Source of the DNA: Escherichia phage HK022
DNA length: 40,751 nucleotides
Sequence record: NC_002166.1
Direction: 5' to 3' (one strand)
Of this stretch, positions 26,080-33,076 are shown piece after piece; positions within the stretch are counted from its first letter, which is position 1; each line of letters begins with the position of its first letter. The notes beneath the pieces were generated by a model, which saw only the letters and a program-made list of their open reading frames with translations, was not told the origin of the DNA and made no database searches. Position numbers and translations under genes: made by a program.

Positions 26080-26291
26080 GAATATCTCCTTCGTTACCGA
26101 TTAATTCTTTCATCTGACGAATGAATTCTTCGTCTGACCAGTTATCTGTAAAACTCATTTCCTGCGATACCATGGAAGGTTGATAGCTGATTTCATCGCT
26201 TTATTTGCTTCAAGCCACATTTTTGAATCACCAATAAATCTGGCTATTACTGCTTTGTTCTGTGCAGCACGAAGCATCTGGTGATTGATGG

Positions 26292-26426
26292 CTATTTCAT
26301 TGCGCATAACGCCTCCAGTTGTTTCTTTGCTGCTCTGATTAATTGTTTAACTCGGCGTGATAATTCAGATTCGTGCGGGTAGAAAGCGGACATGACGCCG
26401 CTACCCGCGAGCTGAAAGTGCATCAT
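26292..26426 (-). CDS. cIII: CIII-like protein
   Basis: 44 aa from tandem ATGs at 26426/26423 with AAGGAG 6 nt upstream; central HESELSRRVKQLIRAAKK resembles the lambda CIII amphipathic core (PSESLLERITRKLRDGWKR). Confidence 0.5.
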   Translation of the reverse strand: MMHFQLAGSGVMSAFYPHESELSRRVKQLIRAAKKQLEALCAMK

Positions 26427-26492
26427 GGGTAACTCCTTATATTTGATTGCATAACGAAAACGCCTCGAGTGAAGCGTTATTGTTATGCATAT

Positions 26493-26516
26493 AAAAAGGC
26501 CCTCACATCGGAGGGC
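26493..26516 (-). terminator. rho-independent terminator upstream of cIII-like gene (tL1-like)
   Basis: GCCCTC-cgatgt-GAGGGCC hairpin followed by T5 on the minus strand. Confidence 0.5.
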
Positions 26517-26600
26517 AAAGAAGATTTCCAATAATCAGAACAAGTCGGCTCCTGTTTAGTTACGAGCGACATTGCTCCGTGTATTCACTCGTTGGAATGA

Positions 26601-27657
26601 GGCTTTGTTGAATAAATCAGATTTCGGGTAAGTCTCCCCCGTAGCGGGTTGTGTTTTCAGGCAATACGCACGCTTTCAGGCATACCTGCTTTCGTCATTT
26701 TGTTCAGCGCTCGTACCAGGGCCATAGCCTCTGCAACCTGACCATCGTAGTCACGCAGTGTCAGTGAACCCCCGAACAGCTGTTTTACCCGGTACATCGC
26801 CGTTTCCGCTATCGAGCGACGGTTGTAATCTGTTGTCCATTTCCACCGCGCATTACTCCCGGTCATTCGCTGATTAGCCACTGCACGGTTACGGTCTGCA
26901 TATTCACCGGGCCAGTAACCCGCACCTTTTCGGGGAGGGATAAGCGCGCTGATTTTCTTACGCCGCAGTTCATCGTGACATAGCCGGGTATCGTAAGCGC
27001 CATCGGCGGCGGCTGACCTGATTTTCCGGTGGGTTTGCCGGATTAACCCGGGGAAGGCCTCTGAGTCCGTAACGTTGTTCAGCGACAGGTCAGCGCAGAT
27101 GATTTCATGTGTTTTACTGTCAACGGCGAGATGCAGCTTACGCCAGATACGGCGGCGTTCCTGGCCATGCTTTTTGACTTTCCACTCGCCTTCACCGAAG
27201 ACCTTCAGCCCGGTGGAATCAATTACCAGGTGTGCGATTTCACCCCGGGTGGGCGTTTTGAAACTGACATTAACCGACTTTGCCCGCCTGCTGACACAGC
27301 TGTAATCCGGGCAGCGTAGCGGAACGTTCATCAGAGAAAAAATGGAATCAATAAAGCCCTGCGCAGCGCGCAGGGTCAGCCTGAATACGCGTTTAATGAC
27401 CAGCACAGTCGTGATGGCAAGGTCAGAATAGCGCTGAGGTCTGCCTCGTGAAGAAGGTGTTGCTGACTCATACCAGGCCTGAATAGCTTCATCATCCAGC
27501 CAGAAAGTTATGGAGCCACGGTTGATGAGGGCTTTATTGTAGGTGGGCCAGTTGGTGATTTTGAACTTTTGCTTTGCCACGGAACGGTCTGCGTTGTCGG
27601 GAAGATACGTGATCTGATCCTTCAACTCAGCAAAAGTTCGATTTATTCAACAAAGCC
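26601..27657 (-). mobile_element. IS903-like insertion sequence (IS5 family), 1057 bp
   Basis: Perfect 18-bp terminal inverted repeats GGCTTTGTTGAATAAATC (26601..26618 and 27640..27657); flanked by 9-bp direct repeat TTGGAATGA (26592..26600 and 27658..27666). Confidence 0.9.
26657..27580 (-). CDS. IS903-type transposase
   Basis: 307 aa from GTG at 27580 (track extends to a TTG at 27625); ends ...MTKAGMPESVRIA as in IS903 transposase. Confidence 0.85.
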   Translation of the reverse strand: MAKQKFKITNWPTYNKALINRGSITFWLDDEAIQAWYESATPSSRGRPQRYSDLAITTVLVIKRVFRLTLRAAQGFIDSIFSLMNVPLRCPDYSCVSRRAKSVNVSFKTPTRGEIAHLVIDSTGLKVFGEGEWKVKKHGQERRRIWRKLHLAVDSKTHEIICADLSLNNVTDSEAFPGLIRQTHRKIRSAAADGAYDTRLCHDELRRKKISALIPPRKGAGYWPGEYADRNRAVANQRMTGSNARWKWTTDYNRRSIAETAMYRVKQLFGGSLTLRDYDGQVAEAMALVRALNKMTKAGMPESVRIA

Positions 27658-27724
27658 TTGGAATGAATACACAGTGCAGTGTTTATTCTGTTGTTTGCGT
27701 GAAAATGAAACCCGCCTGAGCGGG

Positions 27725-28063
27725 TTATGACCACTTTTTGTTTGGGTTTCGCTGGTGAGCGTGATTAACAACTCTGTGCATTACATCCTCATATTTTTCA
27801 TCTTCAATTTTTTCGACATCGCGAGGAAATGGTGTTGCTAATGCTTTGTCAACTTTGTCCATTGGGTCTTCATTAATCTTATATTCAGGACCGTCATCTA
27901 TAGCATTAAATCCAGGTGTCACACCGTTTTTTAATGCATATGCTATCCTTTTTTCCCATCTCGCTATTCTCCTCCTGTCTCGAGATGTAAGACCTCTATC
28001 AGATACTTTTCTGTTTTGTCCGCTGTCAGGATTAACATAAATAGTCTTTTTCACCATAAGCAT
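27725..28063 (-). CDS. nun: Nun-like arginine-rich transcription termination factor (N-position protein)
   Basis: 112 aa from first ATG (track start 28069 is TTG); arginine-rich motif RKVSDRGLTSRDRRRIARWEKR; acidic centre; C-terminus ...NPNKKWS; no SD, as for N-like genes. Confidence 0.75.
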   Translation of the reverse strand: MLMVKKTIYVNPDSGQNRKVSDRGLTSRDRRRIARWEKRIAYALKNGVTPGFNAIDDGPEYKINEDPMDKVDKALATPFPRDVEKIEDEKYEDVMHRVVNHAHQRNPNKKWS

Positions 28064-28239
28064 ACCCAATAAGCACCGTACGGTAGTTTACTGTACAATT
28101 TTATTTTTTGGACTGCATGTATTTTGTTTCCTAATGGGTTTGAATCTTTGCAATAAATACTTCTATTTTTTCGAACGACTTCTATATCAAAAAGCTGCTT
28201 TGCTTTTTGTGACTAAAAGCAAAAAAGCCTTCTCGCTAA

Positions 28240-28310
28240 TGAGCAGCATTGCCGTTCATCCTGAACCCGCCGCGCTCCCGACGCATGGTTTAAAGACGCG
28301 CCGTTCGTCT
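28240..28310 (-). promoter_or_regulatory. putL-like cis-acting RNA element
   Basis: GC-rich segment immediately downstream of the predicted pL start, sharing sequence blocks with the element at 29460..29520. Confidence 0.5.
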
Positions 28311-28315
28311 ATGGG

Positions 28316-28344
28316 CTTATGATGTACTTAAAGTTCATTAATGT
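28316..28344 (-). promoter_or_regulatory. candidate pL promoter
   Basis: minus-strand TTGGTA (-35), 17-nt spacer, TATAAG (-10); flanked by operator-like repeats. Confidence 0.4.
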
Positions 28345-28421
28345 AAAGTACCAATAGTACATTTTATGGGTATAAAAAGCTCACTACATCATAAGTTAGT
28401 GAACTTTAAGGAAATTTATTT

Positions 28422-29129
28422 TTATCCGAATCGCTTGTAATCGATTGACTGCCTAATGAGGACTTTGGCTAGAATGTGAAGTTGCTCTTCTTCACCTTCT
28501 TCTATGTACCATCGATCATAAGCGGCATTGTCAGAGATGACGGCAAGCCTGTTCTTTTGCATTTGCAGGCGCTTAACGTGCATTGTTTTCCCGTATACAA
28601 ACACATAAATGCCATCGCCATCAAAACAGGTTATGGATACATCAACAAAGATCTCATCTCCCGGATTGATGGTTCCCTCCATGCTGTCACCGCGAACCGT
28701 GATGACTTTTACGCTTTCCTGTGGCCTTCCATTAAATAAAATTCTTGCCTGCTCGGTCGTATATTCAATTGCTCTTATCTTTTCTATAAATTCATTGGAA
28801 ACCATGGTTCCTGGCCCGGCGCTCGCCTGAACATCCAATACATCAACACGATAATAATCATTTGATCTTGATAGATGATTTACCGTGATACCGTCATCAT
28901 CAGCATAGCCATGCAGATATGCAGCAGTAGTTCCCAGCACCGAAGCCAGAGATTCCATCTTGTCTTTTCTTGGTATTGACTCCCCGTTGAACCATTTACT
29001 AATGGCTTTTGGTGTGACCTTAAGCCTGACAGCTAAATCAGCCTGCCTACCATGCAAAGGTAATCCCGCTTTATCACAGGCCAGCGCAAGCCTCTGCGAG
29101 AAAGTTTCACGCTCTTTCTGTTGAACCAT
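28422..29129 (-). CDS. cI: CI-type repressor (HTH + S24 LexA-like peptidase domain)
   Basis: 235 aa from ATG 29129; N-terminal HTH, Ala-Gly cleavage site (ASAGPG), catalytic Ser in GDSMEG and Lys in HVKRL; longer track ORF would overlap pR and cro. Confidence 0.85.
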   Translation of the reverse strand: MVQQKERETFSQRLALACDKAGLPLHGRQADLAVRLKVTPKAISKWFNGESIPRKDKMESLASVLGTTAAYLHGYADDDGITVNHLSRSNDYYRVDVLDVQASAGPGTMVSNEFIEKIRAIEYTTEQARILFNGRPQESVKVITVRGDSMEGTINPGDEIFVDVSITCFDGDGIYVFVYGKTMHVKRLQMQKNRLAVISDNAAYDRWYIEEGEEEQLHILAKVLIRQSIDYKRFG

Positions 29130-29136
29130 AAGTTCA
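29122..29136. promoter_or_regulatory. operator-like palindrome TGAACCATAAGTTCA (copy 1)
   Basis: 15-bp sequence with perfect TGAAC/GTTCA arms; centre overlaps the cI ATG. Confidence 0.45.
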
Positions 29137-29149
29137 ACTATATTAGGTA

Positions 29150-29178
29150 TTGACTGTACTATCAGTTCCGTCATAATA
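29150..29178 (+). promoter_or_regulatory. candidate pR promoter
   Basis: TTGACT (-35), 16-17 nt spacer, CATAAT/ATAATA (-10), 30 nt upstream of cro ATG. Confidence 0.55.
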
Positions 29179-29193
29179 TGAACCATAAGTTCA
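29179..29193. promoter_or_regulatory. operator-like palindrome TGAACCATAAGTTCA (copy 2)
   Basis: Identical 15-mer directly downstream of the pR -10 element. Confidence 0.45.
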
Positions 29194-29208
29194 CCACAGG
29201 AGAGAAGC

Positions 29209-29439
29209 ATGAACGAAGTTACGTTTGGAGAAGTTATCAAATCCGTTCGAGTTTCTGTTGTGGCTGATGTTTGTGGACTTACGCCAAAAGCCATCTATAA
29301 GTGGCTTGAGCGTGGTTCTCTGCCGCGTACCGAGTTCACTGGTGAAACCGAATATGCGGATAAGATCGCCAAGGCATCAGGCGGCAAGTACTCAGCAGCA
29401 CAGATTCGCCGTATCGGTAAACAGCAGTTTGTTATGTAA
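29209..29439 (+). CDS. cro: Cro-like repressor
   Basis: 76 aa; AGGAGA RBS; HTH (GLTPKAIYKWLERG); divergent from cI across the operator region. Confidence 0.7.
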   Translation: MNEVTFGEVIKSVRVSVVADVCGLTPKAIYKWLERGSLPRTEFTGETEYADKIAKASGGKYSAAQIRRIGKQQFVM

Positions 29440-29459
29440 TAAAAATGTACTTTTAGTAC

Positions 29460-29520
29460 CGAACGGCCCGGTATACGGTCGGGTGCCCGGCGTGGTCAAG
29501 GATGACTGTCAATGGTGCAC
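29460..29520 (+). promoter_or_regulatory. putR-like cis-acting RNA element
   Basis: GC-rich structured segment between cro and cII; shares CGAACGGC, GTCGGG, GCCCGGCG and GGTCAAGGATGACTGTCAATGGTGC-like blocks with 28240..28310. Confidence 0.5.
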
Positions 29521-29560
29521 GATAAAAACCCAAATTATTTACCTATGGAGATAGTAAGAA

Positions 29561-29857
29561 ATGACACAAACAAGTTACAGCAAGCCAACACAGCGAGAAA
29601 TTGATCGCGCTGAAACTGATTTACTCATCAACCTGTCAACGCTTACCCAGCGCGGTCTGGCAAAGATGATTGGCTGTCATGAATCGAAGATAAGCAGAAC
29701 GGACTGGAGATTTATTGCTTCGGTCTTGTGTGCTTTCGGAATGGCATCAGACATCAGTCCGATTAGCAGGGCTTTTAAGTATGCGCTTGATGAAATCACA
29801 AAGAAAAAATCCCCGGCCGCCACCGAGGATTTTAAGCAAATTGATATGCAATTCTGA
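29561..29857 (+). CDS. cII: CII transcriptional activator
   Basis: 98 aa; C-terminus [18 protein letters not shown] parallels lambda CII KKRPAATERSEQIQMEF; GGAGA RBS. Confidence 0.85.
29570..29583 (-). promoter_or_regulatory. candidate CII-binding site of a pRE-like promoter (TTGC-N6-TTGT)
   Basis: minus-strand TTGCTGTAACTTGT within the first codons of cII, same position as the lambda TTGC-N6-TTGC. Confidence 0.35.
29804..29828 (-). terminator. candidate terminator of an oop-like antisense RNA
   Basis: minus-strand CCTCGG-uggcgg-CCGGGG hairpin followed by ATTTTTT, inside the 3' end of cII. Confidence 0.35.
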
Positions 29858-32435: not shown

Positions 32436-33047
32436 ATGCGAATAAAAAAACTAATTGATCACGATGAGCTTCTGTCAACATTATCATATGACTCAGAAAC
32501 AGGAATATTTAAATGGCTAAAAACAAATTCAGTAGTAAGAGTAAAAGGTAGTATTGCTGGAGGTGTTAGTGGTGGTTATATATGCATTAGCATAAATAAT
32601 GTTTTGTATTATGCGCATAGACTTGCTTGGTTCTATGTATACAAAAAATGGCCTCCTAAGTTTATTGATCATGTAAATGGGAACAGACTTGACAATAGGA
32701 TTTCAAATCTAAGACTGGCAACAGAAGAGCAGAATGCAAGAAACATTGTAGGGAATAGATTAAACACATCCGGTGCAATTGGAGTGTCTTGGTATAAGCC
32801 AACTGGCAGGTGGAAGTCTTATGTTGGTTATAAAAATAAGACAATATCGTTAGGGTATTTCGATAGCAAAGAAGATGCAGCATTCATAGCAGCACTAGCA
32901 AGAAAGAAACTATATGGAACTTATGCGAGTAAAGCACTTAATTGCGAGCATGAGCTTTTATCTCAATTTAATAATGATGAGGATAAACTTGCGGAATATC
33001 TTAAGGAAAAATCTAAAAGGACTCGAAAGCGTGTTAAAAACAGATAA
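32436..33047 (+). CDS. HNH endonuclease with AP2-like DNA-binding domain
   Basis: 203 aa; HNH core (HRLAW...IDHVNGNRLDNRISNLRLAT..EQN) plus AP2-like segment (GVSWYKPTGRWKSYVGYKNKTISLGYF); region markedly AT-rich. Confidence 0.7.
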   Translation: MRIKKLIDHDELLSTLSYDSETGIFKWLKTNSVVRVKGSIAGGVSGGYICISINNVLYYAHRLAWFYVYKKWPPKFIDHVNGNRLDNRISNLRLATEEQNARNIVGNRLNTSGAIGVSWYKPTGRWKSYVGYKNKTISLGYFDSKEDAAFIAALARKKLYGTYASKALNCEHELLSQFNNDEDKLAEYLKEKSKRTRKRVKNR

Positions 33048-33049
33048 AG

Positions 33050-33076
33050 GCCTGCTGGTAATCGCAGGCCTTTTTA
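33050..33076 (+). terminator. rho-independent terminator
   Basis: GGCCTGC-tggtaat-GCAGGCC hairpin plus T5. Confidence 0.65.

Follow-up and report, generated by a model that had tools for sequence, protein, structure and literature searches.

The window analysed here, a stretch of 40,751 nucleotides of Escherichia phage HK022 (NC_002166.1), contains the nun/immunity region of the phage, in which pL, cI and nun lie on the minus strand and pR, cro and cII on the plus strand (Table 1); Pfam matches were obtained for the S24/HTH repressor, CII and a DDE transposase. A G+C-rich segment at 28240-28310, transcribed from the minus strand, had been proposed in a sequence-only reading to be a putL candidate paired with a related element after cro. 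The segment has 57% G+C and begins 8 nt after the annotated pL -10 (28324-28319), in agreement with the claim that it starts a few nucleotides past that hexamer.

Table 1. Features of the HK022 early region around the two put elements (window positions).
Feature	Position	Strand	Basis
Terminator-like hairpin and T-run directly 3' of nun; candidate target of putL-modified polymerase	27709..27726	-	consensus scan only
nun, first pL-operon gene, in N's place	27725..28063	-	X16093, O276 and HK75 annotation; ORF
U-run +87..+92 (28226-28221) and +93, GGCUUUUUUG	28220..28226	-	position computed from PMC9378689
putL structured core A3-C72	28241..28310	-	HK022 identity 100%, O276 annotation, numbering, R1 94.2 bits
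putL arm II (stem II) G36-C72	28241..28277	-	PMC9378689; 8/12 pairs covary
putL arm I lower helix S2: A9-G14 (28304-28299) with C30-G35 (28283-28278)	28278..28304	-	PMC9378689; pairs invariant in relatives
putL bulge C26-G29	28284..28287	-	PMC9378689
putL third strand U21-C25 (minor-groove triplex)	28288..28292	-	PMC9378689
putL arm I upper helix S1: A3-G7 (28310-28306) with C15-U19 (28298-28294)	28294..28310	-	PMC9378689 pairs, covariation
pL -10 CATCAT	28319..28324	-	O276 and X16093 annotation; consensus scan
pL -35 TTTACA	28342..28347	-	O276 and X16093 annotation; consensus scan
cI	28422..29129	-	
pR promoter: -35 TTGACT (29150-29155), -10 CATAAT (29172-29177)	29150..29177	+	annotation, consensus scan
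cro	29209..29439	+	
putR, paralogous antiterminator RNA between cro and cII	29457..29520	+	O276 29464-29520, HK75 29459-29520, R1 63.6 bits
cII	29561..29857	+	

The putL RNA of HK022 has reportedly been studied by King et al. in 1996 (Cell 87:893) and by Banik-Maiti et al. in 1997 (JMB 272:677). Comparison of window positions 26123-29622 with the record of the HK022 nun/immunity region (X16093) revealed 3498 equal bases out of 3500, the mismatches being two adjoining bases (26999-27000, GC vs CG) within an IS903 copy. A megablast search of a phage collection with positions 27700-29600 yielded a full-length match of 100% to X16093, as well as matches to U02466 (HK022 cro/cII, 100%), O276 (99.9%) and HK75 (95.8%). 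The O276 record, which is near-identical here, annotates a misc_RNA putL, described as an antiterminator RNA, at 28241-28303 on the minus strand and putR at 29464-29520 on the plus strand; both are annotated in HK75 too, at equivalent coordinates.

The residue numbering of the cryo-EM structure of putL (PDB 7XUE; Hwang et al. 2022, PMC9378689) was also compared with the window. All the putL residues named in that paper (n = 29/29, including A3, G7, A9, C10, G12, U28, G35, G42-G45, A63-U65, U68 and C72) agreed with the window bases when position +1 was placed at 28312, whereas at most 10 of the 29 agreed at alternative offsets, indicating that 28312 is the pL start. In pL transcript numbering, the flagged segment therefore runs from +3 to +73, in near-exact agreement with the structured core of the cryo-EM study, in which A3 and C72 are the outermost paired residues and the model spans U2-U74 (28311-28239). 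On the basis of sequence, annotation and numbering, the segment is almost certainly the HK022 putL, the left-operon "polymerase utilization" RNA that brings about terminator read-through without a phage protein; none of the results spoke against this assignment. The proposal of a putL candidate paired with a post-cro element was thus borne out, and a reading of the letters alone had located a genuine regulatory RNA and placed its ends almost exactly; the element itself is already known, and the window provides no new discovery in this respect.

Several other sites were observed in the surroundings of the two elements. An A+T-rich hairpin just past putL (28188-28221), to which X16093 gave in 1989 the now superseded label "put. 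nutL equivalent", is located directly 3' of the U-run of the backtrack pause reported to be suppressed by putL, 21 nt past stem II (PMC9378689). Homology to the N-carrying phages mEpX1 and mEp235 ends at about 28183, which suggests a mosaic junction at this hairpin. Between putL and nun, the O276 annotation places a separate nun promoter on the minus strand (-10 28090-28095, -35 28113-28118), implying that nun can be expressed without pL activity, as in a prophage. Downstream of nun, the pL operon carries an IS903-type insertion (26601-27657) with imperfect terminal inverted repeats (26600-26633 and 27625-27658) and a DDE transposase ORF on the minus strand (26657-27625), annotated in O276 as the IS903 transposase. 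On the rightward side, the distal cI operator "OFR" (29445-29459, transferred from HK75) directly precedes putR and abuts its 5' edge; this repressor site and the antiterminator RNA might be coupled. Terminator-like sites were found downstream of both put elements, for example at 27726-27709 (minus strand) and 33046-33073 (plus strand), as consensus matches only.

The same place in a lambdoid early operon could be occupied by a nut-type site, with boxA and boxB recruiting a phage N-like protein and host Nus factors. The label in X16093 just downstream of putL speaks for such a site, as does the presence of N adjoining nun in mEpX1 and mEp235; however, the homology to these relatives ends before putL is reached, and no N ORF was found between pL and nun, the latter being the first gene of the operon. 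The boxA sequence CGCTCTTA was absent from the plus strand, and no CGCTCTT was observed on the transcribed strand adjoining pL or pR, in accordance with the earlier remark that no canonical boxA accompanies the early promoters. The lambda-type arrangement of boxA followed by a boxB hairpin, together with an N gene, was not detected at this locus, and antitermination without a phage factor has been published (PMC9378689). We consider a nut-type site very improbable.

A protein-coding sequence or a cI operator, instead of an RNA element, was given an equally low probability. A 62-aa ORF on the plus strand (28134-28322) does overlap the segment, and some relatives bear the annotation "hypothetical protein" or "translation protein" over the put sequence, but this frame is antisense to pL, the differences among relatives track base-pairing and not codons, and the annotated OL operators are situated upstream of putL, at or beyond the -10.

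The putL assignment was further examined through its resemblance to the post-cro element. Every sequence block quoted in the sequence-only reading was found in the window: the 25-mer GGTTCAGGATGAACGGCAATGCTGC (minus strand, 28267 to 28243) and its partner GGTCAAGGATGACTGTCAATGGTGC (plus strand, 29494-29518) each occur only once, and GCGCGGCG occupies 28275 to 28268. The composite pattern GAACGGC-N(6-26)-GTCGG-N6-GGCG, which captures the blocks shared by both elements, occurs exactly twice (28268-28306, minus strand, and 29461-29492, plus strand) and in none of 100 dinucleotide-preserving shuffles. When the 71-nt segment was aligned against the whole window on both strands, the best local match was the region 29401-29600 (score 35), the runner-up scoring 26; 2000 shuffles of putR compared with the segment had a mean score of 13.4 (sd 2.35, maximum 28), placing the putL/putR alignment about 9 sd above the shuffles. 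The R1 covariance model, built from 21 put sequences, detected exactly two copies in the window, putL (94.2 bits) and putR (63.6 bits); since both were training sequences, the informative result is the next match, at only 10.7 bits (E = 0.4).

In putL, some 70 nt were recognised to form a two-armed fold containing conserved G-U wobbles and the non-canonical pairs A9-G35, G43-A64 and C44-A63. The lower helix of arm I includes A9-G35 and G12-U32, and its pair 14-30 is G-C in putL and C-G in putR. Because the 3-7:15-19 helix crosses that of 9-14:30-35, arm I would formally be an H-type pseudoknot with linkers of 1 nt, 0 nt and residues 20-29, the third supplying the minor-groove triplex strand; this putative topology follows from the pair list of PMC9378689, a paper that does not use the word. 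A -10-like AACCAT was located at +23 to +28 (28290-28285), within the stretch U21-G29, as that paper requires. The sequence TAAACCATGC, which contains this hexamer, was invariant in all the putL-type sequences (n = 13/13) and absent from all the putR-type ones, a distribution that agrees with the σ-dependent pause idea put forward there. In arm II, U68 is bulged, G42-U65 is a wobble, G43-A64 and C44-A63 are non-canonical, and residues 51-55 make up the apical loop.

Two adjacent stem-loops had been expected for both elements, and the minimum free energy folds had two adjacent hairpins for putL and a 5' hairpin plus a long stem for putR. These folds were no more stable than those of shuffled sequence (z = 0.14 for putL and -0.01 for putR), so that free energy is uninformative and thermodynamic stability could not be used as evidence. 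The two-stem-loop picture is that of the 1996-97 model, to which cryo-EM and covariation add the 3-7:15-19 pairing and a third strand in arm I. Strong evidence of compensatory change came from aligning the two copies: seven pairs (3-19, 4-18, 5-17, 14-30, 37-71, 40-67 and 48-58) were altered on both sides with pairing kept. Common to putL and putR were the bulged U68, the G12-U32 and G42-U65 wobbles and the non-canonical pairs A9-G35, G43-A64 and C44-A63. As the MAFFT alignment A2 misregisters the apical helix of putR as well as the residue that pairs there with position 14, these were compared by explicit indexing.

The comparison was extended to 21 distinct put sequences (13 putL-type, seven putR-type and one hybrid from Pantoea phage PdC23) drawn from phages of Escherichia, Salmonella, Erwinia, Enterobacter and Pantoea and from IMG/VR contigs. 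With the cryo-EM-type structure imposed on this set, 90.5% of the cells paired, vs 24-49% when the 3' partners were slid by one to three columns; the former figure is inflated by the relatedness of the sequences and by the derivation of the structure from one of them. Changes on both sides were observed in 12 of the 22 pairs, and the covariation score of 0.425 was reached in none of 500 shuffles (0.149 in shuffles). Four of the five pairs of S1 covary across the set, and S1 was the sole covarying helix that RNAalifold recovered unaided; the program missed arm II, with its bulged and non-canonical pairs, and also proposed an invariant 31-34:41-44 helix that is probably spurious. The older stem I extension of 1996-97 fared poorly: no variation was seen at pairs 15-29 and 16-28, and 12 of the 13 putL-type sequences cannot form 17-27. 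Judged from sequence comparison, the revised cryo-EM fold of arm I is independently supported over the extended stem I. A chance resemblance of two G+C-rich spacers devoid of RNA function, the least probable of the explanations, would be in keeping with the uninformative folding energies, but is practically irreconcilable with the alignment score, the absence of the composite pattern from shuffles, the both-sided changes that keep pairing and the conservation of the element across phages of five genera.

The second copy, putR, shares with putL the two-armed architecture, including the wobble and non-canonical pairs, and differs from it in several respects. The linker after S1 has 3 nt in putR and 10 in putL, because of which putR lacks the triplex strand, the U28 bulge and AACCAT; arm II has an extra U before the apical helix and a 4-nt loop. 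Their placement also differs, since putL, from 28310 on, is at the 5' end of its transcript, just after the pL -10, whereas putR begins about 270 nt past the pR start. In the putR-type elements and in that of PdC23, both arm I helices are kept by compensatory changes, and the third linker has only 2-3 nt, which is too short for triplex formation, for contact by U28 or for the σ-pause element. These elements may constitute a structurally distinct subclass, with the put family being wider than its annotation suggests, a view that we hold tentatively and rate at slightly below even. The single hybrid put of PdC23 (OL396571, L007:1470-1537, 53.6 bits) is unannotated in its record, and combines a putR-like arm I with a very short linker and an arm II whose apical part is identical to that of putL.

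To describe the distribution of the element, phage and bacterial collections were screened. The put element was conserved in Escherichia, Salmonella, Erwinia, Enterobacter and Pantoea phages, those of Salmonella being P22-like, and of 5426 complete E. coli genomes, 131 contained a putL-like sequence, most matches being 80-90% identical; none of the 12 E. coli matches listed had an annotated feature beneath it. A loose pattern scan of IMG/VR returned 120 stretches, about 13 of which were real put loci according to the covariance model, and the remainder were chance matches in G+C-rich contigs. Two IMG/VR sequences (L108:780-849 and L127:2112-2181) present a put-like arm I, ACUGAACGGCACAG...UGUCGG, with a compensating A14-U pair and an unrecognisable arm II; they did not reach the E <= 0.01 threshold of the model and may represent either a divergent put or a chance match. 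At three loci (L010:1407-1505, L005:1315-1671 and L011:861-1241), genes for a "translation protein" or "hypothetical protein" are annotated across putL-like sequence; in these records a non-coding RNA locus has probably been mis-annotated. A scan of Rfam 15 gave no match to either put copy at the gathering threshold, and only weak unrelated matches at E <= 10 (rsmX, mir-4679 and ctRNA), with nothing named put. Since put is the classic example of an RNA able to reprogram bacterial RNA polymerase unaided, its correct recognition matters for annotation.

The present results concern the identity and position of the element, the conservation of its fold and the presence of exactly two copies, while polymerase binding and antitermination have been published for the same sequence. 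Transcription from pL starts at 28312, and nt 3-72 of the nascent RNA fold into a V-shaped, two-armed structure. In arm I, nt 3-7 pair with 15-19 and 9-14 with 30-35; the minor groove of the former helix accommodates nt 21-25, while 26-29 are bulged. Arm II is formed by the 36-72 helix. According to the literature on putL (PMC9378689), the folded RNA binds its own polymerase where the transcript leaves the exit channel, through contacts with the β' zinc-binding domain and the β flap tip, and counteracts the swivelling that favours pausing. Because the RNA remains associated with the enzyme, the polymerase passes intrinsic and Rho-dependent terminators kilobases downstream with no phage antitermination protein, and putR acts likewise on the pR operon. 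Terminators of both kinds at least 10 kb away are read through without a phage protein, and mutations in the zinc-binding domain encoded by host rpoC block put action (PMC9378689). Cis-acting read-through and anti-pausing that require the β' zinc-binding domain have been reported for the same sequence (PMC9378689 and its references 9-17), and the decisive experiments, including a comparison of read-through between put+ and a put- substitution at +43 to +47, are already in print.

When set against known systems, the segment showed no differences from the published HK022 putL, with which it shares sequence, position after pL, residue numbering and annotation. A putL-like antiterminator RNA of phage HK639 is said to have been described by King et al. 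in 2011 (J Bacteriol 193:5784). In the HK639 sequence (HM208537), arm I is nearly identical to that of putL and the GGCG...CAAU core of arm II is kept, whereas the lower part of arm II is swapped for compensating pairs; a single put copy was found within the stretch examined. Lambda N/nut resembles put in its place in a lambdoid early operon and in producing a processive, terminator-resistant polymerase, but the lambda nut RNA needs N and Nus factors, whereas the put RNA acts alone and binds the β' zinc-binding domain directly. RfaH/ops and the lambdoid Q/qut system likewise modify RNA polymerase processively against pausing or termination, and the anti-swivelling effect of put has been likened to that of RfaH (PMC9378689); in contrast to put, an RNA-only effector, these two systems consist of protein factors loaded at DNA sites.
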